From: Candidatus Komeilibacteria bacterium
Lineage (GTDB): Bacteria; Patescibacteriota; Patescibacteriia; UBA1558; 2-01-FULL-52-15
Length of the DNA stretch: 64,000 nt
Direction: 5' to 3'
Assembly: GCA_043801745.1 (NCBI GenBank)
Contig: JAZDLR010000016.1
Location: 1,535-65,534, forward strand
Shown here: piece after piece, positions 5,875-62,733 of the stretch
Position numbering within the stretch: the stretch's first letter is position 1
Layout: each line of letters opens with the position of its first letter
Notes under the pieces: model-generated
The model's database searches: none
Told to the model about the DNA's origin: nothing
What the model saw: the letters and a program-made list of their open reading frames with translations, nothing else
Program-made: the position numbers and the translations under genes

Positions 5875-5948
5875 GGGCCCGTAGTAAAGTGGTATTACAC
5901 GGCATTCGCATTGCTGAGGCGGGAGTTCGATTCTCCCCGGGTCCACCA
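5875..5948 (+). tRNA. tRNA-Ala (anticodon CGC)
   Basis: Hand-folded cloverleaf: acceptor GGGCCCG/CGGGTCC with G3:U70, D-stem GTAA/TTAC, anticodon stem CGGCA/TGCTG with loop TTCGCAT, T-arm GGGAG-TTCGATT-CTCCC, encoded CCA. Confidence 0.75.
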
Positions 5949-6088: not shown

Positions 6089-6137
6089 TCGCCTCGCTGA
6101 GCGAGAGCGAAGCGGGCCTAGGTCCACCATTTCAGAT
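6089..6137. repeat. 49-bp direct repeat, copy 1 (tcgcctcgctgagcgagagcgaagcgggcctaggtccaccatttcagat)
   Basis: Identical to 8503-8551; ends in tRNA 3'-end-like GGTCCACCA. Confidence 0.9.
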
Positions 6138-8502: not shown

Positions 8503-8551
8503 TCGCCTCGCTGAGCGAGAGCGAAGCGGGCCTAGGTCCACCATTTCAGAT
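8503..8551. repeat. 49-bp direct repeat, copy 2
   Basis: Perfect copy of 6089-6137. Confidence 0.9.
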
Positions 8552-17978: not shown

Positions 17979-18032
17979 CATCAAATAATCTTCGCTGATT
18001 TCTTTCTTACTACAAGCTACCCTCCTACCATC

Positions 18033-19271
18033 CTACTCATACCTCAACGCCTCGATCGGATTCTTCTTAGCCGCCTGGCGAGCCGGATATAGACCAAAGA
18101 CCAGACCTACAACAGTAGATACTACCAGACCTAAGATGGCTGCTGACATGGGGAAAGTAAAGGACCAGGCAAAGCCGGCATATTTTGCCACCAATAAAAT
18201 AATCAGATAAGAGAAAGAGGTGCCCAGAACTATTCCTATAAAGCCGCCTGCACCGGTCAGCGCAACCGATTCTAATAAAAATTGCGTCATGATATCGCTT
18301 TCGGTGGCTCCCACGGCTTTACGTAAACCAATTTCGCGGGTGCGCTCTGTTACTGATACCAACATAATATTCATAATGCCGATACCACCGACTAATAAAG
18401 AGATGGCAGCCACGGCAGCCAAGAATAAAGTCAATACATCAGTAATGGTTTTCACCATAGCCATAGCATCAGCTTGAGTTTCCACAAAAAAGTCATCCTT
18501 GTCCGGATCGGTAATTCCATGATTAGCCCTTAAGGTTAATTTTAAATCGCGTACTGTGGCAGCCACGTGCTGCTCACTGTCAGCCTCTATAACGATGCGA
18601 TTAAAATATTTTATACCCAGGATATATCTTTGCGCGGTCGTATAGGGAATAATTACCGCGTCATCAAAACTTACAAACGACGATTGACCCTTAGCCGACA
18701 TGACGCCGACAATCCGCAGGTTGCGTCCTTTAATCCTGACCTTCTGACCAATCGGATCAGAATTAGCAAATAGCTCGTTCTTCACTTTACTACCAATAAC
18801 GACCATATCAGCATAACCCTTGACGTCCTCCTCAGTAAAAGACACGCCTTGAGCCAGCTTAATGTCATAGATATCCATAAACATGGTATTAACTCCATAA
18901 AGAGTGGGCCGGTAAATCTGATTGCCATAAGACAGGGTCTCCGTGCCAAAAACCAAAGGCATTACCCGTACCAAATACGGCACATTGCTCTTATTCAAAA
19001 TAGCCGTTAGATCACGGTCTTTAAGTGAATCAGTAAACGCCGAGAGAGCATCCGACGGGCCTTTTGGCATCTTGCCCGGAGCGACCACGATGGTCTTGGC
19101 GCCAACGCTCTGAATCTGGTCAAGAATTAAATTTTGTGCGCCCTGACCCAAAGAAACAATAATCATAATCGCCATGATGCCGATCACAATACCCAAAATT
19201 GTCAAAGCTGCCCGCGTTTTATTTGTCCGCGGACCGACGACCGATGTTTGGAAATTGTGCTTAAGTTTCAT
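18033..19271 (-). CDS. ABC transporter permease (FtsX/MacB-like)
   Basis: N-terminal TM helix, large periplasmic domain and C-terminal FtsX-like 3-TM bundle; paralog of 19292..20530. Confidence 0.8.
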   Translation of the reverse strand: MKLKHNFQTSVVGPRTNKTRAALTILGIVIGIMAIMIIVSLGQGAQNLILDQIQSVGAKTIVVAPGKMPKGPSDALSAFTDSLKDRDLTAILNKSNVPYLVRVMPLVFGTETLSYGNQIYRPTLYGVNTMFMDIYDIKLAQGVSFTEEDVKGYADMVVIGSKVKNELFANSDPIGQKVRIKGRNLRIVGVMSAKGQSSFVSFDDAVIIPYTTAQRYILGIKYFNRIVIEADSEQHVAATVRDLKLTLRANHGITDPDKDDFFVETQADAMAMVKTITDVLTLFLAAVAAISLLVGGIGIMNIMLVSVTERTREIGLRKAVGATESDIMTQFLLESVALTGAGGFIGIVLGTSFSYLIILLVAKYAGFAWSFTFPMSAAILGLVVSTVVGLVFGLYPARQAAKKNPIEALRYE

Positions 19272-19291
19272 AACGATTATAGCTACGTCTC

Positions 19292-20530
19292 CTACTCATA
19301 CCGCAGCGCCTCAATCGGATTCTTGATGGCAGCTTGACGCGCCGGATATAAGCCGAAAACTAAACCGACAATAGATGATACGGCTAAACCCAAGATTGCG
19401 GCTGAAACCGGGAAAGTAAAGGACCAGGCAAAGCCGGCGTATTTGGCAATAATTACGATTATCAAATAGGAAAAAACCGTGCCTAAAATTATTCCTATCA
19501 AACCGCCCAGACCGGTCAGTGCGACCGATTCTAATAAAAATTGAGTAAGAATATCACCTTGGGTGGCTCCCACAGCTTTACGTAAACCGATTTCCCTAGT
19601 CCTCTCCTTAACCGATACCAACATAATATTCATAATGCCGATGCCACCGACTAAGAGCGAGATGGCGGCTACCGCGGCAAGAAGCATAGTTAAAACATCA
19701 GTCACGGTTTTTACCATGGCCATGGTGTCAGCCTGGGTTTCAATATAAAAATCGTCTTTGCCCGGATCAGTAATACCATGATTAATTCTGATAGTTGACT
19801 TTAGATCCTGCACTGTGGCGGCCACACGCTCTTCGCTGTCAGCCTGAACGATAATATGCTGAAAATGTTTGAAGCCAAAGATATAGCGCTGGGCCGTGGT
19901 ATAGGGCATTACTACTGCGCTATCAAAATTTACGAATGATGATTGCCCTTTGGCTGCCATCACACCAATAACGCGCAGATTACGGCCCCTGATCCTGATT
20001 CTCTGTCCAATTGGATCAGAATTGGCAAATAACTCATCTCTCATCTTACTGCCGATAATCGCCACATCGGCATAGCCCTTAACGTCTTCCTCTGTAAAGT
20101 AGTTACCTTGGGACAGCTGAATATCATAAATATCCGAAAATAATGGATTAGCTCCGTAAATTGTCGGCCGGTAAATCTCATTGCCATAAGACGCAGTCTG
20201 CACGCCAAAAACCAAGGGCATTACCTTGGCTAAATAGGGTACGTTGGCCTTATTTAAAATGGCGGCTAAATCCCGCTCCTTAAGTGAATCACTAAACATG
20301 GATAAGGCATCCGAGGCGCTTTTCGGTTGTTTACCCGGAGCAATGGTAATAGTCTTGGCGCCAACACTGGATATTTCTCCGATAATCAAATTCTGCGCTC
20401 CCTGGCCCAGTGACACAATGATCATAATCGACATAATACCGATTACGATACCCAAAATCGTCAAAGCTGCCCGACTCTTGTTTGTCCGCAGACCAACAAC
20501 TGAGGTCTGTAAATTATGTCTGAGCTTCAC
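19292..20530 (-). CDS. ABC transporter permease (FtsX/MacB-like), tandem paralog
   Basis: About 75% identical to 18033..19271 along the full length. Confidence 0.8.
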   Translation of the reverse strand: MKLRHNLQTSVVGLRTNKSRAALTILGIVIGIMSIMIIVSLGQGAQNLIIGEISSVGAKTITIAPGKQPKSASDALSMFSDSLKERDLAAILNKANVPYLAKVMPLVFGVQTASYGNEIYRPTIYGANPLFSDIYDIQLSQGNYFTEEDVKGYADVAIIGSKMRDELFANSDPIGQRIRIRGRNLRVIGVMAAKGQSSFVNFDSAVVMPYTTAQRYIFGFKHFQHIIVQADSEERVAATVQDLKSTIRINHGITDPGKDDFYIETQADTMAMVKTVTDVLTMLLAAVAAISLLVGGIGIMNIMLVSVKERTREIGLRKAVGATQGDILTQFLLESVALTGLGGLIGIILGTVFSYLIIVIIAKYAGFAWSFTFPVSAAILGLAVSSIVGLVFGLYPARQAAIKNPIEALRYE

Positions 20531-38816: not shown

Positions 38817-38848
38817 CCCCGCCCAGAGGGCGGTCGCCCCGTGGGCGA
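38817..38848. repeat. double-hairpin repeat element, copy A (CCGCCC-AGA-GGGCGG / TCGCCC-CGT-GGGCGA)
   Basis: Second copy at 51755-51784 has identical stems and different loops. Confidence 0.7.
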
Positions 38849-38868: not shown

Positions 38869-39576
38869 ATGTCCGGCCATTCCAAGTGGGCCACTACCAA
38901 ACGCCAAAAAGCGGTTACTGACGCCAAGCGCAGTAATCTTTTTACTAAGTTGGCGAAAAACATTGCTGTGGCTGCCCGCGATGGAGCCGATCCGGCTATG
39001 AATTTTAAATTGCGCATTGCGATTGACAAGGCCAAAGAGTACAGCATGCCCAAAGATAATATTGAACGGGCTATTGCCCGTGGTAGCGGTACCGGCGGTG
39101 GTCAGGCAGTTGAAACTATTCTGTACGAAGCTTATGGCCCGGAAGGAATAGCTTTATTGATTGAAACCGTAACTGATAATAAAAATCGTTCGGCCGGCAC
39201 AGTTAAGGCTATCTTGAGTAAAAACGGCGGTAGTTTGGGCAGTGCCGGCAGCGTTCAGTGGCAATTTAATCTTCAAGGGATTCTGACTTTAAAAATTTCG
39301 AAACTTACTGACGAGCAAGAGTTACAATTAATCGATGCGGGGGCCGAAGATTTCATTGAACTGGGCGATTTGCTACAAATTATCTCAGCTCCAGAAAATT
39401 TGGAAAAGATCAAACATCAAGTTCAAGCTTTAAATCTGCCGCTAACCGACGCCGCCCTAGAATACCGACCCAAAGATTTGATTACGCCTAAAGATCCCGA
39501 GAGAATAATCCATCTCTTAGAATTACTGGAAGACGACGAAGACATCAATAACGTTTATACCAACGCCAACGTCTAA
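38869..39576 (+). CDS. yebC: YebC/PmpR-family DNA-binding transcriptional regulator
   Basis: N-terminal MSGHSKWATTKRQKAVTDAKR ... motif; conserved linkage with ruvC. Confidence 0.9.
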   Translation: MSGHSKWATTKRQKAVTDAKRSNLFTKLAKNIAVAARDGADPAMNFKLRIAIDKAKEYSMPKDNIERAIARGSGTGGGQAVETILYEAYGPEGIALLIETVTDNKNRSAGTVKAILSKNGGSLGSAGSVQWQFNLQGILTLKISKLTDEQELQLIDAGAEDFIELGDLLQIISAPENLEKIKHQVQALNLPLTDAALEYRPKDLITPKDPERIIHLLELLEDDEDINNVYTNANV

Positions 39577-48463: not shown

Positions 48464-48530
48464 AGATTAGCTTAAATATTGTCTTAATTTGCTTTCATTA
48501 TACCTGATTGTTGGCTATAATAAAACAACT

Positions 48531-51362
48531 ATGCCCATTTCTCCGCTTCGCCCAGCCTTTCAAACCAAACCCCTAGGATCCACTAATTTCCCTCGGTCTC
48601 CCCGACACCACCGAGGTGGTTTTTGGCGTATCTTTTGGCAACGTATTATACCAATAATTATTCTCTTAACTCTAGTTGGTGGAATTTTTGTGGTTGGTGC
48701 TTTTGTTTGGTATTCGCATGATTTACCAGACCCCAATAAACTAATTGACCGTAGCGTAGCCCAGAGCACAAAAATTTATGATCGCACTGGAGAGCATTTG
48801 CTTTATGAAATCCATGGCACTCAAAGGCGCACCCTAGTTAATCTTGATCAGATTCCTAAATATGCGGTTGAGGCAACTATTGCCATTGAGGACAAAACCT
48901 TTTATGAACACCGGGGCTACAATGTGGCGCGTATTATCAAATCATTATTAATAAATGTTTTAACTGGCCAAAAAGCTCAGGGCGGCTCTACGCTAACACA
49001 ACAATTGGTCAAGAACGCTATCTTAACCACCGAAAAGGCGTATTCCCGAAAAATTAAAGAGTTGGTGCTTTCTTACCGCATAGAACAAAAATTCACCAAG
49101 GATGAAATCTTAAAATTATACTTCAACGAAATCCCTTACGGTTCCACGGCCTATGGTATCGAATCGGCTAGTGGTATCTATTTTGGCAAGTCGGCTAAAG
49201 ATTTAACCCTGGCCGAAGCGGCCGTATTAGCCGCTCTACCTCAAGCTCCGAGCTTCTACTCTCCCTATGGCTCACATAAAGACCAGCTGCTAGAGCGTCA
49301 GCGTTTGGTTTTAAAATTAATGCGGGAGCAGGGATATATTACGGCTGATCAGGAGCGGGCCGCCGCTTCAGAACAGGTTGTTTTTAAAACTAAACGTGAA
49401 GATATTACTGCGCCACACTTTGTCTTTATAGTTAAGGCCGAGCTGGCAGAAAAATACGGCGACCGGATGGTGGAACAGGGTGGTTTAAAAATCACCACAA
49501 CCCTTGATTGGGAGAAACAACAATTAGCCGATGAAACCGTGCAGCAAATTGGCTCTCAGCTGCAAACCAAGTATGGAGCCAACAATGCCAGCTTAGTAAC
49601 AATCGATGTGGTCAGTGGTGATGTCTTGGCTTTGGTTGGATCACGGGATTACTTCGACGACTCTATTGATGGCCAAGTTAACGTAGCGATCCAACCGCGT
49701 CAACCAGGAAGCTCACTCAAGCCTTTTGTTTACGCTCAATTATTTACCAAGGGATTTGGCCCGTCTTCATTACTATTTGACCTAGTAACCTCTTTTGGTT
49801 CTAATGGTGCTGGCGGCGAATACAAACCCCATAATTACGACGGTAAAGAGTATGGTCCGGTTTCTATCCGCCAAGCTTTAGCTGGTTCTCTTAACATTCC
49901 AGCTGTTAAAGCTCTTTACTTGGCTGACCCAGTTAAAGTAATCGAACTGTTAAAAAACTTTGGTTACACCAGCTTTACCGACGCTTCCCGCTATGGCCTG
50001 TCCTTGGTTTTGGGCGGCGGAGAAGTGGAGCTGATAGAGCATACCAATGGCTACGCTGCCCTGGCGCGCGAAGGGGTCTATCAAAAATATTATGATGTTT
50101 TAAAAGTTGAAGATTCAACCGGTCGGGTGTTAGAAGAGAAAGAACAACCCGAACAAAAAAGAATTCTGGAAGCGCAAGTCGTCCGCGAAATTACCAACAT
50201 TCTGTCTGACAATGATGCCCGCGCCTATATTTTTGGTGTGAATAACAATTTAACCCTTGGCGGACGTCCAGTAGCAGCTAAATCCGGAACTACCAACGAC
50301 TATAAAGACTCTTGGCTTATGGGCTATACGCCGCAGTTAGTCACCGGTGTCTGGGTGGGTAATAATAATAATAAGCCCATGAACCAGGCTACTGGTGCCA
50401 ACGCTGCCGGTCCTATCTGGCAAAGCTACATGGCTAAAATTCTAGCCGCTTATCCGGCTGTCGGCTTCACGGCTCCTGAAACAACCGTTTGCGATAAAAT
50501 AATGATTTGCGGCCAATTGGCGCGCGAAGTAACGATTCCTGTTGACCGCGTAACTGGGCAACCGGCCACAGCGGCCACTCCACCGGAAAACATCGAACAG
50601 CGTACCGTTAAAGAGGTTCATGATATCTTACAATACGCAGACAAAAATGATCCGCTCAACCCCTCATATCCGGCCCATCCAGAACAAGATCCTCAGTATG
50701 AAAACTGGGAGGCGCCGGTGCGTAAGTGGGCCCAAACTAATGGTTACGTTAGTAGTCTGCCCAACCAGGGAGTTAATGACCGAATTAAAATCAGTTGGGT
50801 AGAGCCCAGTAATAATGACCAGCTCTCGGGACAGTCAATTCATTTGGCTGTAGGCGCCGACGCTCCTGATGGAATAAGCCGCGCGGATTATTATTTGAAT
50901 AATCAATTTTTAGGCAGCTCATCCAAGCCGCCGTTTGATATTACAGTTAGTCAACAAGCTTCTTGGCCTTCCGGCACTCAATCGTTACGCGCTATTGTCT
51001 ATGATTCTATCGGGGCCAGTAACTCTGCTTCTTTAACGGTTAATATTAGCCAGATGATTATTACTGCGCCAAAAATACAATGGACCAGTCCGCAAAATTA
51101 TACAGTCTATACCACTGAAACTTGGCCCAAGACCATTTCCGCCACACTGGATTCAATCAGCACAGTGGCCAAAATAGATTTCTACTACGTCTTTGGTGAC
51201 CAGACTAATTTTGCCGGCGTTATTGACAAACCCACCTCACCAGTAATTAGTATTCCGTTAAAACAGAATGGCCCCAAGGGAAACTATAAATTCTATTTAA
51301 TTACTACTGACAGCGCTGGCGGAGTACATACCAGCGACAGTATTTCGGCTACTCTTCAATAA
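48531..51362 (+). CDS. class A penicillin-binding protein (transglycosylase/transpeptidase, PBP1A-like)
   Basis: GT51 motifs (EDKTFYEHRG, GGSTLTQQL), transpeptidase SxxK/SxN/SGTT; start at ATG 48531, 9 nt after a TATAAT box (track ORF starts 48489). Confidence 0.85.
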   Translation: MPISPLRPAFQTKPLGSTNFPRSPRHHRGGFWRIFWQRIIPIIILLTLVGGIFVVGAFVWYSHDLPDPNKLIDRSVAQSTKIYDRTGEHLLYEIHGTQRRTLVNLDQIPKYAVEATIAIEDKTFYEHRGYNVARIIKSLLINVLTGQKAQGGSTLTQQLVKNAILTTEKAYSRKIKELVLSYRIEQKFTKDEILKLYFNEIPYGSTAYGIESASGIYFGKSAKDLTLAEAAVLAALPQAPSFYSPYGSHKDQLLERQRLVLKLMREQGYITADQERAAASEQVVFKTKREDITAPHFVFIVKAELAEKYGDRMVEQGGLKITTTLDWEKQQLADETVQQIGSQLQTKYGANNASLVTIDVVSGDVLALVGSRDYFDDSIDGQVNVAIQPRQPGSSLKPFVYAQLFTKGFGPSSLLFDLVTSFGSNGAGGEYKPHNYDGKEYGPVSIRQALAGSLNIPAVKALYLADPVKVIELLKNFGYTSFTDASRYGLSLVLGGGEVELIEHTNGYAALAREGVYQKYYDVLKVEDSTGRVLEEKEQPEQKRILEAQVVREITNILSDNDARAYIFGVNNNLTLGGRPVAAKSGTTNDYKDSWLMGYTPQLVTGVWVGNNNNKPMNQATGANAAGPIWQSYMAKILAAYPAVGFTAPETTVCDKIMICGQLAREVTIPVDRVTGQPATAATPPENIEQRTVKEVHDILQYADKNDPLNPSYPAHPEQDPQYENWEAPVRKWAQTNGYVSSLPNQGVNDRIKISWVEPSNNDQLSGQSIHLAVGADAPDGISRADYYLNNQFLGSSSKPPFDITVSQQASWPSGTQSLRAIVYDSIGASNSASLTVNISQMIITAPKIQWTSPQNYTVYTTETWPKTISATLDSISTVAKIDFYYVFGDQTNFAGVIDKPTSPVISIPLKQNGPKGNYKFYLITTDSAGGVHTSDSISATLQ

Positions 51363-51384: not shown

Positions 51385-51545
51385 GCCCCCGCGAGTAATT
51401 GCGAGGGCCAGGTTGGTGGAACCGGCCGGATTTGCCGCGCCCCGCTGCCTAGCGTCAGCTATGGCGGCCGGGGAACCGACGATCTCCCTGGGGTCAACCA
51501 GAGCGCCTTAAACACTTGGCCACGGTTCCGATATCACGGAAATAA
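51385..51545 (-). other. GC-rich segment co-transcribed downstream of tRNAs, ending in an intrinsic terminator (candidate small ncRNA or processed trailer)
   Basis: Minus-strand terminator CCCUCGC-AAUUACU-CGCGGGGG plus U5 near 51385-51410; about 60% GC, no convincing ORF. Confidence 0.3.
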
Positions 51546-51547
51546 GT

Positions 51548-51652
51548 TGGAGCGGGTGATGGGATTCGAACCCACGACGTCTTCCCGAGGTAAGAGGCAG
51601 ATCACACATACCCCGCCAGAAGAAAGCGCCCTACCTCTGGGCCACACCCGCT
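51548..51652 (-). tRNA. tRNA with ~29-nt insertion in anticodon loop (anticodon CUG/Gln-like if insertion removed at 37/38)
   Basis: Acceptor GCGGGTG/CACCCGC, D-arm GCCC-AGAGGTA-GGGC, T-arm GTGGG-TTCGAAT-CCCAT, CCA encoded; anticodon stem CTTTC/GGAAG interrupted by hairpin GGGGTA...TACCTC. Confidence 0.5.
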
Positions 51653-51666
51653 CTAAAAGAACGAAT

Positions 51667-51743
51667 TGGAGTAGCCAACCGGACTCGAACCGGCAACCTC
51701 CTCACCGAAGGGGTGAGCCGCTCTACCTTTGAGCTATGGCAAC
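51667..51743 (-). tRNA. tRNA-like gene with atypical anticodon loop (CCCUUCG; anticodon unresolved, CUU/UUC-like)
   Basis: Acceptor GTTGCCA/TGGCTAC (one mismatch), D-arm GCTC-AAAGGTA-GAGC, anticodon stem CTCAC/GTGAG, T-arm GCCGG-TTCGAGT-CCGGT, CCA encoded. Confidence 0.45.
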
Positions 51744-51754
51744 ATCTTGTCTTG

Positions 51755-51784
51755 CCGCCCACCGGGCGGTCGCCCTGTGGGCGA
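51755..51784. repeat. double-hairpin repeat element, copy B (CCGCCC-ACC-GGGCGG / TCGCCC-TGT-GGGCGA)
   Basis: Same stems as 38817-38848; sits inside a 40-bp segment flanked by 13-bp direct repeats (51732-51744 and 51785-51797, agctatggcaaca). Confidence 0.7.
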
Positions 51785-52029
51785 AGCTATGGCAACAAAA
51801 AATATCTCTGAAGCCTACCCGCCTATGGTGGGCAGCGACACGAATATAGATATTAATACAACTCAAAATCAGTGTCAATTACTATTACTTGACATTATCT
51901 TAATAATATGATAAAAAATAATGTTCTTTGAAATCATGGGCCTGTTATGGCCTTGTATATATAGAACTCCATACGGAGGTTGCCGACAACGCGTCGGCAT
52001 AGACACAAAACCGCCATGAACCGAGGAGG

Positions 52030-52428
52030 ATGAGTATCGTGGCTAGCAAAACCCTGTATGGAAAGGTGGGGGTGACGCGGCCTAACGAGCCAACACTAAT
52101 AGTGACCACCTTTCGCCTTCACATTGGTGAGGTAGTGAAAAGGCTAGGTCTCTACCCCTCTCCTAACGGGAACGAGTATGTCGTCGACCAACTGCGCGAT
52201 GGCTTGGAGATTAGGATGCCTTCGTCGGCTATTCTTTTTCTCTGCACCATACCAACTCCCTGCGTTATCTATGAGCGTGAGATTTATCTAGGAAAGGATC
52301 ACGGGGAGTCGGGCCCATTCCTCTTGAAAGAGGGCGCACGTTTCATGCGAGGCAACACGAACGACCTCTTCGTGGAAGCTCTTTCATCCTTTTTGCAAGC
52401 TACCACCCCGGACATCAATAACGCTTAG
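52030..52428 (+). CDS. hypothetical protein (high-GC island ORF1; GTG start)
   Basis: GAGGAGG RBS 7 nt upstream; GC about 58-60%. Confidence 0.5.
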   Translation: MSIVASKTLYGKVGVTRPNEPTLIVTTFRLHIGEVVKRLGLYPSPNGNEYVVDQLRDGLEIRMPSSAILFLCTIPTPCVIYEREIYLGKDHGESGPFLLKEGARFMRGNTNDLFVEALSSFLQATTPDINNA

Positions 52429-52477
52429 CGGGCCGAAACCTACCCACCCAAACACAGACATACGACTGGAGGATCTT

Positions 52478-52717
52478 ATGATTTTCGTAGAATTCACCCC
52501 CAAAGAGACTTCTCCCATGAGGCGCAAATACTTTTTCGTCGGCGCCAGTTTGGAGGACGTCCTCGCGGACACAAGCGGTGGTACGGAATTTGGATTCGTC
52601 ACCTTCGCCTCTCACCGCGAGATTTCCGAGGAAGAAGCTCGCAGCCTGAAGCTGGGCTACCTGGACAAGGGCATTCAGGCCGTGAAGAACGGCTGCAAGA
52701 GCTACATGCTGGACTAG
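52478..52717 (+). CDS. hypothetical protein (high-GC island ORF2)
   Basis: GGAGGA RBS; 79 aa acidic protein. Confidence 0.45.
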   Translation: MIFVEFTPKETSPMRRKYFFVGASLEDVLADTSGGTEFGFVTFASHREISEEEARSLKLGYLDKGIQAVKNGCKSYMLD

Positions 52718-52778
52718 GCTTTTAGCGCGCAGACAACTGCGCACACGATCACTAGACCCCCACAGGAGGTAGCAACAC

Positions 52779-53438
52779 ATGAAACGGATCATTCTGATCG
52801 CTCTGCTTGCCTGTCTGTTCGTGATCCCGACGTTCACCACCGTCTGCCTGGCTGCAGATCAGCCGGCAGTCAACACCACCTCCACCGGCCTCACCCCCGA
52901 GGACATCGCGCAGCTGCAGAAGAACGTGACGGCGTTTGCGAAGGTCCTGGGTTTGGCTGACACCACCACCGCCAAGTCCGGGACTCGGCTGTCAATGGCC
53001 GATGTGGCTGACAAGTTCCTGGAGTACTCCAAGGCGGCCATTCTGGCGACTGTCGGTACCATCGAGAAGGTTGCTCCACATGTTTGGGCTGTGTTGGTAC
53101 GACAGCAATACGCCAAAGCTTTCTCTTCGTTGGCAGCCCCAGTCTTCATCTTCATCTTCCTGTTGCTCTTTCGACTGTGGGTCGTGAGGAAGAGGAAGAG
53201 CGTCACTGCGACAGAAAACGACGTACTCGTTGTAGTGAACGGCAACCTCGATCCAGTCGAGATCAAACTGACCGGTTTGGGTCAGTGGGCCAACGTCCTG
53301 GCGCTTCTTGGAATGGTCACTGCAGCCCTGTTCGTGGCAGCACGGATTGCGCCGGCAGTCAGACTCCTGGTCAACCCCGAGTACTATGCGCTCCGCGACC
53401 TCATTCTCCTGCTCCTGAACAAGGGCCAGGGGATGTAG
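52779..53438 (+). CDS. hypothetical membrane/secreted protein (high-GC island ORF3)
   Basis: GGAGG RBS; signal peptide then Thr-rich region and two TM helices. Confidence 0.5.
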   Translation: MKRIILIALLACLFVIPTFTTVCLAADQPAVNTTSTGLTPEDIAQLQKNVTAFAKVLGLADTTTAKSGTRLSMADVADKFLEYSKAAILATVGTIEKVAPHVWAVLVRQQYAKAFSSLAAPVFIFIFLLLFRLWVVRKRKSVTATENDVLVVVNGNLDPVEIKLTGLGQWANVLALLGMVTAALFVAARIAPAVRLLVNPEYYALRDLILLLLNKGQGM

Positions 53439-53468
53439 GTCCTCAACATCCACCACGGACAACAACAA

Positions 53469-53502
53469 ACGCCGGTCGCGCTCTGCGGCCGGCGTCTATT
53501 TT
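53469..53502 (+). terminator. intrinsic terminator closing the high-GC cassette (ACGCCGG ... CCGGCGU plus U-run)
   Basis: GC-rich stem followed by TCTATTTT. Confidence 0.6.
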
Positions 53503-53526
53503 ATACTTTAATATCCTACCCAACTA

Positions 53527-54810
53527 CTAATACATTATCCTGGGCGGATAGATATTTATTCCTGATTTAAACAGAACCAAATAGAAAATCAGGAAAACCA
53601 AATACCAGATAAGTTCCGCCACAATGATCGCCAGGAATGATTTCCAGCCGTGCTTTATGGCCACAATAATGGCCAGCCCAAAAACAAAGAAGACATAAAG
53701 CAGGATAACAATAATAAAAGCAATAATACTAAACGCCGTATCACTACTTAAGGAGTAAAAGAAGTTCTGCTTGGTTAGATATTGAAACCCATAGGTGATT
53801 ATAACTACCGCCAAAGCCGATATAAAACCTAAAACTGCGTGCAAGGGATCAACAATACTTAGCGTTTCATTTTTCGACGGCGTTGCTTCAGTTGAAGTTG
53901 AGGCGTTCTTTCTTTTTTTTGATCTACGTGTCAAGAAAAATAACAACAGAAAGATGACAATTATAATACCAATAGTCCAAAGAATGCCGGACAGATAAAG
54001 CCGAAACCAATTGGTAGAATATTCTCCCTTTACAACAAACGATTCATTGGCAGCCAAGTTCTTCGCCTGTTTCATTAGGGCACCATAGGAGCCGATCTGA
54101 CTTACACTGCGGTCTAGTTCGGCGCTGGGAAGTCCGGCTAATTTAGCCGGGGAGGCGGTATCAGAGTTTGATACGGTGCCATAATTGACGTTAGCTTGTT
54201 TTCCTTTGAGCAACAGGTCACTATCAACATCAACACTGACATTTATTGTTTCGATTCTGGCTGGAACTTTAATGGTTTCAAATCTGAATTTCTGTAGTCC
54301 TAAAAAATTTGTCACATAGCCCTTAGCAGCATAAGCAATAACTAGGGCACCGGATTTAGACGGAGCAATTGGGGTGGGGAAAGTTAATTTATAGCTATTT
54401 CCTTCTTTGGTGTATTTTACCTTTTGATAACTACTGGCCTGACTACCACCCTTATAGGCAACATCATAACCAACTCCGGCCGAGTATGCGGCATAATTGG
54501 GATCACCATACTCCAGGCAAGGTTGTGTTGGATTGTTGTAATCCGCCCGCAGACAAGGCCGAGGAAGTTGCTGCTGAATAATAACCATTTCTGACGGGGT
54601 CACACCCGGTATCTCAAAACTAAAATCAGTCATCGGTGTGTCTTGAGAATTGGTAATAGCAATCTTGGCGTAAACAATCGCCTCGCCATTGCCGCGAAAA
54701 ACCACACTATAATAATGACTTTGTCCAAAAAGAAGCTCCGACTGTGCCGACGCTCCGAAAGAAAATAGGATCAATAATAAAGGTATAATTTCTCTGATGA
54801 TTTTTTTCAT
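53527..54810 (-). CDS. hypothetical exported protein with C-terminal multi-TM region
   Basis: Signal peptide; large beta-rich ectodomain; Lys-rich stop-transfer then 3 TM helices. Confidence 0.45.
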   Translation of the reverse strand: MKKIIREIIPLLLILFSFGASAQSELLFGQSHYYSVVFRGNGEAIVYAKIAITNSQDTPMTDFSFEIPGVTPSEMVIIQQQLPRPCLRADYNNPTQPCLEYGDPNYAAYSAGVGYDVAYKGGSQASSYQKVKYTKEGNSYKLTFPTPIAPSKSGALVIAYAAKGYVTNFLGLQKFRFETIKVPARIETINVSVDVDSDLLLKGKQANVNYGTVSNSDTASPAKLAGLPSAELDRSVSQIGSYGALMKQAKNLAANESFVVKGEYSTNWFRLYLSGILWTIGIIIVIFLLLFFLTRRSKKRKNASTSTEATPSKNETLSIVDPLHAVLGFISALAVVIITYGFQYLTKQNFFYSLSSDTAFSIIAFIIVILLYVFFVFGLAIIVAIKHGWKSFLAIIVAELIWYLVFLIFYLVLFKSGINIYPPRIMY

Positions 54811-57678: not shown

Positions 57679-58788
57679 TTATTGTTTTATCGGCATTATC
57701 AAATAACGGAAACTGGTGTCGCTTTCCGGCGACATTAAAGCCGGACCGCTACTATCATTAAGTTTAATTTTTCCTTTATCATTATTAAGATTATTAATAC
57801 CATCTAATAGGTAGCGGTAATTAAATACTATTTCTCCCGCCTTACCGTCAACATCAGCCTGAACCCGTGAAATATTGTCTCCTGACATACTATTCTGCGC
57901 CCGCAACTGAATTTCTTTAGTGTCGGGAACATAAGAAACCCTAACATCATTAATTCCTGGCTGGCAAAATAATGCAGTAGTTTTAATAGTCGGAGCTAAA
58001 GATGAGACCTGAAAAGAAATAGTGCTGGTAAAACTAGTTGGTATAATCTGCTGATAATCCGGATAGTGGCCAACAACTATCCTGGATATTACTTCGGTTG
58101 GTCCAATTACTACCTTAATTTGATTATCATTAACCATAATTATTGTCTCTTCTGTTTCGTTATCTTCTGCCAATATTTTAGCTAATTGCTGCACAGTTTT
58201 AAGAGGAATAATTAATTTCTGTTCCTTGTCTGATCCTTTGATCAGGGCCAGGTGTTTTTCCGCCAACCGATAGCTATCGGTTGCCACCAAAGTCAGTTTA
58301 TCTTCAATAAAACTAAAAAATACCGCATTAAGCTCTGGTCGTCCCTCATCACTACTAGCAGCAAACAATACTTGATTAAGACCGTCTCGCAGAATGGCAG
58401 TTGCTATAACTATTGTCGTCTCGGGAGATATTTCAGGAATTAGCGGAAAATCATTAGCCGACTCCCCTTTTATCTTGGTGGTGTGATTCTCCCCCTGAAT
58501 GACCAGGGTGTTTTCCTGCAGTTCAATACTAATATTTTCCCTTTTTAGCGAGTGGACAAAGTCTCCTAGCAGTTTAGCATTGACTGTAAAGCTACCTGCC
58601 TCTTCAATTTTACCTCTGACTTTACTTTTTATTCCTATCTCAAGGTTAGTGGTAACTAAAGTTAGGCCTTCTTTATCGGCTTGCAAAAGAACATTATTTA
58701 AAATCGGTAAATTAGGATGTTTACCGGCTAGTCCAAAAATCAACTGTAAACCTTTGGACAAATTTTCCTGTGTACAACTTAATTTCAT
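57679..58788 (-). CDS. dnaN: DNA polymerase III subunit beta (sliding clamp)
   Basis: Three-domain clamp length; N-terminal MKLSCTQENLSKGLQ typical; adjacent to dnaA. Confidence 0.9.
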   Translation of the reverse strand: MKLSCTQENLSKGLQLIFGLAGKHPNLPILNNVLLQADKEGLTLVTTNLEIGIKSKVRGKIEEAGSFTVNAKLLGDFVHSLKRENISIELQENTLVIQGENHTTKIKGESANDFPLIPEISPETTIVIATAILRDGLNQVLFAASSDEGRPELNAVFFSFIEDKLTLVATDSYRLAEKHLALIKGSDKEQKLIIPLKTVQQLAKILAEDNETEETIIMVNDNQIKVVIGPTEVISRIVVGHYPDYQQIIPTSFTSTISFQVSSLAPTIKTTALFCQPGINDVRVSYVPDTKEIQLRAQNSMSGDNISRVQADVDGKAGEIVFNYRYLLDGINNLNNDKGKIKLNDSSGPALMSPESDTSFRYLIMPIKQ

Positions 58789-59037
58789 ACTATATGTATA
58801 TATAAAGATAAGATAATAATAGAAGAGAGGTGGATACTGTTGATGACTGACGGAATTAGTGAATTAACTTAGAGAAAACGACGTAATCTCTCCCCAGTAG
58901 CATGTGAATATAGTTGGTGGTAAGTGACTAGTTGTTCACACCTGATTAATTTTGTGAAAGGTGACGAAGAAATAGAAGTGGTTTGTTAACAGGTTTGTGG
59001 ACTTTTTATACACACGGCCGGTGGATAAAAATAATTA

Positions 59038-60402
59038 CTATAATTGATAAATTTTTTGTCGTAAAAGAGCGACGTCATTTTTTATTTTTTCATCTCGCTG
59101 CAAACTTTCTTTGATTTTATTGCAGGCATGCATGGCAGTGGTGTGGTCACGGCCACCCAACTCCTGTCCGATGTTGGGGAAAGAGGCGTTCATTTCTTCT
59201 CGCATTAACCACATAGTAATCTGGCGGGGAACTACCAGCTCTTTCTTGCGGCAGGTTCCGACTAAATCGTCAATACTAATTTCAAAAAATTCAGCCACTG
59301 ATTGGATTAGGCGGCGCGCTGTCAAACCGCCCTTCTTAGGGTTGCTACTAATAGTAGATAAGATGCCGCGGGTGGACTCTACCGTTGGTAAGGAGTTGTT
59401 AAGTTGATGAAAAGCAATAATACGGTTTAAGGCGCCCTCTAATTCACGGATATTATCTTTAATATTTTCAGCAATGGACTGAATAATTTCCTTGTCCAGA
59501 GAAAAGGCTCTTTCTTGGCATTTGGCTTGTAAAATAGCCACCCTGGTCTCAAAATCTGGGGCAGAAATATCAGCGATCATTCCCCATTCAAAGCGCGAAA
59601 CCAGGCGGTTTTCAATAGCTGGAATAGCTTTGGGTGGTCGGTCAGAACTAATAATTATCTGTTTATTGGCTTGGTGTAGGGCGTTGAAGGTGTGAAAAAA
59701 TTCTTCTTGGGTCTGCTCCTTGCCGGCGATAAATTGAATATCATCGATCAGTAGAACGTCAACATTACGGTAGGCCTTTTTAAATTTTTCCGTTTCCCCG
59801 GTTTTAATAGAGGCGACAAAGTCATTGGTAAACTTTTCACTATTAATATAGAGAATCTTGGTACCGGGGTTCGTTTCCAGAATATGATTACCGACAGCCT
59901 GAATTAAATGAGTTTTTCCTAGCCCTACCCCACCATAAAGAAATAGCGGATTATAAACTTGTCCCGGCTTGGCAGCAACAGCCTTGGAGGCAGCATGCGC
60001 CAACTCATTACCCTTGCCGACTATGAAACTGTTAAAAGTGTATTTTTTATTAAGACCAAATTTATTCTGCGTAAAAGTATTGGTGTCGTTGGTGGTTGGT
60101 CCCAGCTTTTCTTCGGTATTGCGGTGTACTGCTTTTTCTACTGGCGCCGATTGAGCGGAAACTTTGTAGCTAATTTTCAATTTTCTATCACCGCCCAACA
60201 AATTATTAACAGCCGTAGCAATTTGTTGGTGATATTTATTTTCCAGCCAAGCTTTAGTAAAGGCGTTGGGCACACCAACAATTAAAATATCAGGCTCACG
60301 ATCAAAAACAAAAGTATTTTTAAACCAAGTGGTAAAATTAGCTTTAGAAATTAACAGTTCAAGTTCGCCAAGAACTGCTTGCCAGAGTTGATTATTGTCC
60401 AT
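59038..60402 (-). CDS. dnaA: chromosomal replication initiator protein DnaA
   Basis: AAA+ Walker A GGVGLGKTHL, Walker B LLIDDIQF, sensor and C-terminal DNA-binding domain. Confidence 0.9.
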   Translation of the reverse strand: MDNNQLWQAVLGELELLISKANFTTWFKNTFVFDREPDILIVGVPNAFTKAWLENKYHQQIATAVNNLLGGDRKLKISYKVSAQSAPVEKAVHRNTEEKLGPTTNDTNTFTQNKFGLNKKYTFNSFIVGKGNELAHAASKAVAAKPGQVYNPLFLYGGVGLGKTHLIQAVGNHILETNPGTKILYINSEKFTNDFVASIKTGETEKFKKAYRNVDVLLIDDIQFIAGKEQTQEEFFHTFNALHQANKQIIISSDRPPKAIPAIENRLVSRFEWGMIADISAPDFETRVAILQAKCQERAFSLDKEIIQSIAENIKDNIRELEGALNRIIAFHQLNNSLPTVESTRGILSTISSNPKKGGLTARRLIQSVAEFFEISIDDLVGTCRKKELVVPRQITMWLMREEMNASFPNIGQELGGRDHTTAMHACNKIKESLQRDEKIKNDVALLRQKIYQL

Positions 60403-62188: not shown

Positions 62189-62264
62189 TGTTGGGGTCCC
62201 GCTCGCGGGGGTAATTTTAAAATTACGCATTCTCTGGAATTCGTCATCTGGGATAGTCTGAAAA

Positions 62265-62573
62265 AAGAGAACGCCACGGTCGAATGATCGTGGCGTTTTG
62301 ACGCAAGGTCCGCACAAGCCGCAGATGGGCAAGATGGGCGAAACCCGCAGATGATATAACCTTATTGGCTTTTTGCCGGCACCATAGGGGGCTATCCCCC
62401 ACAGGTACCGCGTCACCCCCTTTATCGAAGTATCGGGGGCTTGCTCGCCCACTGGGCGACGGCAGGGTTGGGGCACATTGGCCCCGTTAGCCGAGGAGAC
62501 ACTCGTCGGACCGCTGAGCTCTAGCGGCCAAACAGGCGTTTCCTTTCTAAACCCTCGATCCCTGGGCGTCCCC
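62265..62573 (-). other. GC-rich structured non-coding region; tentative tmRNA-like element
   Basis: Minus strand begins GGGGACGCCCAGGGAUCGAGGG (resembles tmRNA 5' GGGGCUGAUUCUGGAUUCGACGGG); 3' side has hairpin CCACG-AUCAUUCGAC-CGUGG then CGUUCUC that can pair with the 5' end; no tag ORF identified. Confidence 0.2.
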
Positions 62574-62733
62574 TGGGATCAATGTACTAATAACCTTTTA
62601 TCATATATATAAAATTGTGTCAACCCCGAAAACCGAAGTAAATTAAAATAATGGCTAGTTTTGGCCAATTTAGGTGCTAATCATACTATGTTTGAGTGTT
62701 CGGGTCCCAAGTTGCAAGCCACAAGTCCCCTCT

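Follow-up and report, generated by a model that had tools for sequence, protein, structure and literature searches.

A dispersed double-hairpin repeat between two copies of a tRNA-like gene 5' end in a Komeilibacteria genome: a possible insertion scar

How did the 5' end of a tRNA-like gene come to lie twice within a short distance, with a pair of palindromes in between? The question is raised by a Candidatus Komeilibacteria (Patescibacteria) MAG, in which both the 13-bp repeat and the palindromic element are located on one 64-kb stretch of DNA; the whole of this stretch was analysed and is termed the window here. The sequence AGCTATGGCAACA is present exactly at 51732-51744 and at 51785-51797, as a preliminary description of the locus had claimed, and no further site with fewer than two mismatches was found anywhere in the window. 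The left copy, which is the downstream one in the direction of transcription (minus strand), corresponds as reverse complement to positions -1 to 12 of an intact tRNA-like gene (gene 1), as reflected by both the sequence and the ARAGORN gene call, so the antisense relation to the 5' region of a tRNA that had been reported for it holds. The right copy reads TGTTGCCATAGCT on the minus strand, lies upstream as a stub of the same 5' end, and abuts the palindromic element directly, AGCT being followed at once by the element, which is denoted E. The 40 bp between the two copies also have the composition previously described: TCTTGTCTTG (51745-51754) is followed by the hairpins CCGCCCACCGGGCGG (51755-51769) and TCGCCCTGTGGGCGA (51770-51784).

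The same description held that a 13-bp repeat is far beyond chance, which is overstated. In 200 Markov simulations of the window, 10.5% of simulated windows contained exact direct repeats of 13 nt or longer within 100 bp (mean 0.155 per window), and five such repeats are present in the real window, including that of the tRNA-Ala 3' half at 5903/5974. The repeat studied here is significant because it flanks a copy of a dispersed element and begins at the 5' end of a gene; its length is not the reason.

An operon of tRNA-shaped RNAs at the repeat

Both 13-mers and E lie within one minus-strand transcription unit, which is composed of a promoter, a leader of ~100 nt, three tRNA-shaped genes, and a terminator. 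The sigma-70-type promoter obtained by promoter scanning (TTGACA-17 nt-TAATAT, 51850-51878, minus strand) is placed as in the related operons L004 and L062 (loci from other genomes are designated by L and a number). Gene 1 (51667-51743, minus strand) is called tRNA-Lys(CTT) by ARAGORN and scores 46.4 bits against the Rfam tRNA model, with a gathering score of 29. Gene 2 (51548-51651, minus strand; 51.7 bits against the same model) carries a 33-nt insertion in the anticodon loop, and a similar gene is located at ~4547-4650 in L004. Gene 3 (51414-51529, minus strand) is tentative, having been read from the sequence without tool confirmation; it displays a Ser-like D arm, an 8-nt anticodon loop, a closing stem GGAACCG...CGGTTCC-A-CCA, and an oversized extra region. 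The intrinsic terminator at 51409-51384 (minus strand) is the only one that the terminator scan returned for the operon. None was found at E, which is followed by CAAGACAAGA and no U tract, and no promoter was predicted at E itself.

The adjoining gene had been described as a tRNA gene, of which the cloverleaf and the Rfam tRNA score stand, but the decoding features of the anticodon loop do not, so that a tRNA-like RNA is the more accurate term. The acceptor, D, and T arms of gene 1 are intact. Its anticodon arm can be drawn either as a 6-bp stem with a 5-nt loop or with the loop CCCUUCG, lacking U33 or a purine at 37; a 7-nt loop with U33, purine 37, and a conserved anticodon, as canonical for a decoding tRNA, is therefore not present. 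Judged from its predicted fold, the “tRNA-Lys” of gene 1 is not a decoding tRNA. Its orthologues in L004 (TyrRS 69% identical) and L062 (PBP1A 61% identical) have anticodon loops of only 3-4 nt, GUCU and GGU, respectively, on stems of differing sequence, and compensatory changes among the orthologues are observed at acceptor pairs 6:67 and 7:66 and at T-stem pairs 50:64 and 51:63. Since the stems compensate while the anticodon loops differ, the RNA of gene 1 appears to be conserved as a shape and not as an adaptor. Such compensation in both stems suggests a function for the tRNA-like RNAs as non-coding RNAs.

The operon can be observed at 51414-51743 (minus strand) in the window, at 4284-4740 in L004, at 14444-14516 in L062, and at 5050-5210 in L001, with one to four odd tRNA-shaped genes at the equivalent place in the relatives. 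Across the operon, the anticodon arms carry loops of 3-5 nt, loops of 8 nt, loops without U33, or inserts of 33-37 nt. In the Komeilibacteria relatives the operon adjoins genes for an ABC transporter, PBP1A, and TyrRS; in the window the adjoining PBP1A gene is located at 48489-51362, its product matching a protein of a Candidatus Komeilibacteria MAG with 100% identity, and the relatives of the TyrRS are Patescibacteria. The ABC transporter that lies between the operon and PBP1A in relatives is missing in the window, implying that the neighbourhood has been rearranged. Directly upstream of the operon, the region 52000-54810 has a GC content of 0.51 compared with ~0.43, and its three ORFs (52030-52428, 52779-53438, and 53527-54810 on the minus strand) have no Pfam match.

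Several further features were recorded elsewhere in the window. The tRNA-Ala(CGC) gene at 5875-5948 is followed, 26 nt on, by a copy of its own 3' half (a 17-nt exact repeat at 5903/5974, with a diverged T arm). Exact 49-nt direct repeats at 6089-6137 and 8503-8551, which end in the tRNA 3' end GGTCCACCA, bracket a gene for a 742-aa DUF6829/DUF1152 protein. This region looks like the product of serial site-specific integration at a tRNA 3' end, and no integrase was seen there. A direct repeat of 300 nt with 79% identity (18031-18330 and 19290-19589, 1.26 kb apart) probably represents paralogous gene segments. The genes dnaN and dnaA occupy the minus strand at 57679-60402 and the GC skew changes sign at ~58-60 kb; the chromosomal replication origin is probably located just to the right of 60.4 kb. 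Finally, a non-coding, GC-richer, and hairpin-rich region of ~430 bp is located at 62190-62620. Its minus strand carries a TTGACA-type promoter (near 62620) and a terminator (near 62270-62300), and among its hairpins is a solitary one of the T type, TCGCCCACTGGGCGA, at 62445-62459. No Rfam family matched this region, which may be an unannotated structured RNA.

A dispersed family of double hairpins

The element E (51755-51784) is a 30-nt double palindrome formed by CCGCCCACCGGGCGG and TCGCCCTGTGGGCGA on the plus strand. An exact-stem pattern search of metagenome contigs recovered 29 copies in 27 loci, which together with two copies in the window amount to 31. The second window copy (38819-38848) is located in the yebC-ruvC 5' leader, 20 nt upstream of the ATG at 38869. 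The contigs carrying E belong to Patescibacteria; searches of IMG/VR viral contigs and of 32 loci from relatives returned no copy. Neither E nor the leader matched an Rfam family, and no description of short hairpin repeats in Patescibacteria was found in the literature, in which a 2026 survey of Patescibacteria tRNA introns lists group I and II introns only. E is apparently an undescribed, selfish mini-element.

The consensus of the family with its flanks is tttttACTTTT-CCGCCC-A.A-GGGCGG-TCGCCC-T.T-GGGCGA-WACTTTT. It is GC-rich and consists of two abutting hairpins with 6-bp stems, the 15-nt halves being inverted copies of each other at 13-14 of 15 positions. What had been described as a 40-bp element is thus only partly so: the 30-nt core is repeated, but the 10-nt pyrimidine stretch (TCTTG)2 between the left 13-mer and E (51745-51754) lies outside the family consensus and is shared only weakly with the sequence beside the second window copy (41 nt, 83% identity, family D15). 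This spacer may have been carried in with E. The window copy folds with -23.6 kcal/mol (z = -4). The minimum-energy RNA fold, a single long hairpin of ~-23 kcal/mol, was considered as the relevant structure and rejected, since compensatory variants break the long form and its middle loop bases rarely pair. The variants TCGGCC..GGCCGA, CTGCCC..GGGCAG, and CCACCC..GGGTGG with TCCCCC..GGGGGA preserve each hairpin by double changes. Because such changes keep each stem and would break the single long hairpin, it is the two hairpins that are preserved.

Copies of E are nearly always intergenic and fall into two principal contexts. In mRNA leaders and intercistronic spacers the order is C-hairpin, T-hairpin, 17-26 nt, and then ATG, with fixed orientation in nine genes. 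Genes with E in the leader include lexA (twice), rplT, rplJ, trx (thioredoxin), and yebC; in rpsK it is located farther away, at 53 nt. A role as SOS operator, to which its presence upstream of lexA in two genomes and of yebC-ruvC here might point, was rejected, as E also precedes rplT, rplJ, rpsK, and trx, occurs within tRNA fragments, and is missing in front of lexA in close strains. In tRNA-derived contexts, the order on the tRNA sense strand is always T-hairpin and then C-hairpin, as in the window, where the transcribed minus strand reads the T-hairpin first and the C-hairpin second. Copies in D-loops are usually located directly after A14-R15-Y16-Y17 and before G18-G19, and at least nine copies, all in D-loops of tRNA fragments, are embedded in tRNA sequence with no flanking duplication.

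The fragments that carry E have acceptor stems that do not pair, and they are 5' fragments, each preceded by a promoter and followed by an intact tRNA: Val in L053, Leu in L041 and L050, and Pro in L039. The architecture of L039 is as in the window, 12 nt of the tRNA-Pro 5' end being repeated exactly and followed by a hairpin upstream of the intact gene. Further double hairpins are present in the anticodon and T loops of some fragments (L039, L040, and L041), and tandem arrays of E were found in L048. That E is a mini-intron of live tRNAs was rejected, since removal of the insert yields no new ARAGORN tRNA and the acceptor stems of the carriers are unpaired. As separate observations, fragments of tRNA-Pro, Val, and Leu adjoin intact tRNAs at L039 7450-8050, L040 1950-2400, and L041 4800-5150 and 2200-2350; their double-hairpin inserts are positioned at 17/18 in the D loop, at 33/34 in the anticodon loop, and in the T loop, and comprise several sequence families with a common T...A + C...G architecture.

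At the locus studied here, E follows AGCT, which occupies gene positions 9-12. More generally, we infer from the aligned copies a target rule by which E would insert 3' of A-R-Y-W (AGCT, AGTT, AATT, and AGTA) on the T-then-C strand. Such a sequence target fits better than a transcription- or replication-directed rule, because tRNA and mRNA contexts carry E in opposite orientations. The two copies in the window are oriented alike with respect to the origin near dnaA; orientation directed by the replication strand was nevertheless rejected, as the tRNA and r-protein contexts in the metagenome are oppositely oriented.

Gain, loss, and the origin of the 13-bp repeat

The behaviour of E could be followed in four strains (L035, L064, L069, and L070), in which the PEGA protein has 92-95% identity to the L035 sequence. 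The site in the lexA leader is empty in L070 and filled in L069 and L035. By alignment, the L069 allele differs from that of L070 by an additional 51 nt, composed of ACTTTAAACTTT + A + E + TACTTTTA, and E is bracketed in L069 by an exact target duplication of 12 nt, or of 20 nt (ACTTTAAACTTT) if one mismatch is allowed. At the site just after the PEGA stop codon, L064 and L070 are filled and L035 and L069 are empty. The difference between filled and empty sites in such close strains indicates that gain and loss of E take place over short times, and a gain can be accompanied by a flanking duplication comparable in length to the 13-bp repeat in the window. The neighbouring spacers, such as those of murA-PEGA in L069 and L070, show differences of 100-400 nt among strains with 92-95% identity; they are made of AAAGTA/TACTTT repeats and hairpins. 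In one strain (L070 3787-3900), the loop of a C-type hairpin is expanded by 22 nt (CCGCCC-TTCTTGTCCTCCTTTGGAGGGT-GGGCGG), and this insert holds TCTTGTC, a heptamer that is also present within the (TCTTG)2 spacer of the window.

Across the family, the longest word common to the two flanks of E has a mean length of 7.4 nt, compared with 5.3 nt for mismatched flank pairs. In register, the 7 nt to the left and right of E agree at 4.74/7 compared with 3.33/7, a value reached in 0 of 5000 permutations, with no signal in other registers. Longer flanking repeats are present in L047 (15 nt), L035 (11 nt), and L056 (11 nt). Together with the L069/L070 pair, it can be seen that copies of E are often flanked by direct repeats, although the length of the duplication is not fixed: about 7-20 nt in general, 13 nt here, and none in the D-loop copies. 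The latter imply that E can also insert or be copied without duplication. No transposase was present among the ORFs scanned.

At the orthologous operons L004 and L062, a promoter is followed by a leader of ~8 nt (..ATTCG) and a single TGTTGC..., with neither E nor a duplication. Copies of E are present in the tRNA-like leader of the window only, and likewise in its yebC leader only, the element being absent upstream of yebC in L003, L008, L012, and L041. It should be noted that for the tRNA-like leader this is a comparison over some distance, as the nearest relatives with gene 1 have neighbouring proteins (PBP1A or TyrRS) that are 61-69% identical. The longer leader in the window also contains an older relic of the gene 5' end (51818-51845, minus strand) close to the promoter, where the ancestral junction would lie; it consists of ATTCG-TGTCGCTG and, behind it, a single hairpin that resembles E, CCCACCATAGGCGGG. 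The relic can be aligned with the leader of L062, ATTCGTGTTGCTG, ATTCG-TGTCGCTG (51845-51833) being identical at 12/13 positions (shuffle p = 0.003). Downstream of this hairpin there is decayed sequence and then the 13-nt stub, E, 10 nt, and intact gene 1. As read from these alignments, the leader is composed of two stacked stubs of the 5' end, one after the other and both terminated by a hairpin element, which suggests that an earlier insertion-duplication event took place at the same leader.

The explanation we favour, with about an even chance of being correct, is that E is a copy of a dispersed mobile repeat and that its insertion duplicated a 13-bp target, leaving a selfish-DNA scar. A miniature inserted element with target duplication had already been proposed for the locus, and the proposal gains support from the E family, the L069/L070 pair, and the empty orthologues in L004 and L062. 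Here, a copy of E, probably with ~10 nt of donor flank, would have inserted at the AGCT of gene positions 9-12, duplicating the 13-bp target to the left of E. The duplication would have rebuilt an intact 5' end downstream of E and left the 13-nt stub upstream; we infer that the repeat arose in the same event as the insertion. Gene 1 would have survived, now 53 bp farther from its promoter, and duplication and hairpins would represent a selfish-DNA scar and not a functional device. Certain observations do not fit readily: the D-loop copies lack a flanking duplication, the left 13-mer lies 10 nt from the core compared with 0-1 nt at L069, the in-register flank match is just 3/7 for each of the window copies, a variable duplication length is atypical of a classical transposase, and partial tRNA duplications such as that of the tRNA-Ala 3' half occur here without E as well.

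In a second, rather unlikely explanation, which is the principal rival, slippage or unequal exchange first duplicated the 5' part of the gene, or all of it, in tandem, and E entered the redundant upstream stub later at AGCT with no duplication of its own, the rest being deleted or decayed to leave 13 nt + E + 10 nt. The D-loop copies, with tRNA sequence on both sides, and the E-free tRNA-Ala duplication are in accordance with such an order of events, and the 10 nt after E (CAAGACAAGA) agree with the expected continuation CAAAGGTAGA at 6/10 positions. By eye, the older relic also seems to run on into D-arm-like sequence after its hairpin, but automatic alignments firmly back just ATTCG-TGTCGCTG and not this continuation. 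However, the 13-mer is preserved at 13/13 positions next to a stretch preserved at 6/10, and the probability that four random changes in 23 nt all fall in the last 10 is ~0.02. Relatives have a single copy of the gene, and in the L069/L070 pair the insertion of E is itself accompanied by duplication.

A selected function of the leader appears quite improbable. Stub and hairpins would then act as a processing or stabilising element (RNase III, P, or J), or as a decoy 5' strand that tunes maturation, with E serving similarly in mRNA leaders. GC-rich palindromes flanking mitochondrial tRNA genes reportedly serve as processing signals. The fixed orientation of E 17-26 nt upstream of nine start codons and the compensatory changes in its stems would be expected of such a device, and in the predicted fold of the precursor the upstream 13-mer may replace the true 5' strand of the acceptor stem. 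As cited in PMC4478555, GC-rich palindromes are reported to flank Neurospora mitochondrial tRNA genes (Yin et al. 1981). Against this, E is present or absent at one and the same site among strains whose neighbouring protein has 92-95% identity to that of L035 and is absent at the orthologous sites of relatives; with respect to transcription, it points in opposite directions in tRNA and mRNA contexts; it is found in tandem arrays (L048) and in dead tRNA fragments; and the orthologous operons L004 and L062 do without both E and leader.

The possibility that the 13-mers are attL/attR cores of a recombinase at the gene 5' end, from which an island has since been deleted, is highly improbable: tRNA genes are classical integration sites, the adjacent GC-richer 52.0-54.8 kb holds ORFs without Pfam match, and tRNA-Ala in the window has classical 3'-end repeats, but integrases duplicate the 3' part of tRNA genes and the repeat here is a 5' end, the interval is just 40 bp and composed of a dispersed repeat, no integrase is present among the neighbouring ORFs scanned, and the GC-rich region is not bounded by a further copy of the 13-mer, so that the att core duplication earlier considered as an alternative is rejected.

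A broader proposal can be made, which we consider unlikely. E and its relatives would form a new class of bacterial mini-elements, spreading by copying with variable duplications of 7-20 bp and donor flank, preferring the loops of tRNA genes, and in time turning the tRNA operons of Patescibacteria into arrays of stubs and of tRNA fragments full of hairpins beside the gene that survives. The pattern is reminiscent of target-primed or template-switch copying and not of classical transposition. The loops may be preferred for being single-stranded in the folded RNA and for carrying the A-R-Y-W / G-G sequence. In a stronger version, some hairpin-bearing tRNA genes among the partly visible copies (L033) may still be functional, the insert being tolerated or removed from the RNA.

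Implications and comparison with known systems

The genomes of Patescibacteria (~1 Mb) are assumed to be streamlined; the E family points to active selfish DNA that remodels their intergenic leaders and tRNA operons. For annotation, tRNA finders may miscall or miss genes with stubs, hairpin inserts, or odd loops, as exemplified by the ARAGORN “tRNA-Lys” that, by its anticodon loop, should be unable to decode. Assembly and binning are affected as well, since a perfect repeat of 30 nt recurs across many genomes. The presence or absence of E offers a strain-level marker among strains whose neighbouring protein has 92-95% identity to that of L035, and target duplications of variable length in a bacterium point to mobilisation other than by a standard transposase. 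The parts most deserving of attention are the hairpin family that targets tRNA loops and the operon of tRNA-shaped RNAs without anticodons.

Among bacterial repeats, MITEs resemble E in being non-autonomous and dispersed, with inverted-repeat termini, flanking direct repeats, and insertion polymorphism, and E likewise displays dispersed, near-identical, non-coding copies and presence/absence polymorphism at orthologous sites. MITEs are, however, usually 100-400 bp in length with a fixed duplication length, compared with 30 bp and a variable duplication for E, and we know of no parent IS with ends matching E. REP/BIME sequences (RAYT, IS200/IS605-like Y1 transposases) share with E the form of extragenic palindromes of 20-40 nt in many copies, the dependence on hairpins, intercistronic and leader or trailer positions, and a short sequence preference beside the hairpin. 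REPs carry a conserved GTAG-type tetranucleotide at the foot of the palindrome, and the consensus 5' flank of E on the T-then-C strand is A-R-Y-W (AGTA/AGTT/AGCT); REPs are thought to move without target duplication, whereas some insertions of E are accompanied by one; and the hairpins of E abut with no spacer, unlike those of REP/BIME. Rickettsia palindromic elements are, like E, palindromic selfish repeats in a reduced genome, and genes, RNA genes among them, tolerate their presence. They are 100-150 bp in length and often lie in frame in functional genes, whereas the copies of E inside tRNA-like sequence are located in dead fragments.

The kinds closest to E are the mitochondrial DHEs of Allomyces (Paquin et al. 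2000), the GC clusters of yeast (PMC4478555), and the repetitive hairpin elements of sponges (PMC2800124). Yeast GC clusters have flanking repeats of 2-3 nt (AG/ACT) (PMC4478555), compared with about 7-20 nt and variable for E. These elements are organellar while E is bacterial, and the sequences are unrelated, the likeness being one in kind only. To our knowledge, systematic positions in tRNA D, anticodon, and T loops are not known for mitochondrial double hairpins or GC clusters. The likeness in kind extends over many characters: in both cases one or two short GC-rich hairpins occupy the AT-rich spacers of a compact genome, near or inside RNA genes, varying between strains, forming tandem arrays, bearing short flanking repeats, and encoding no protein.
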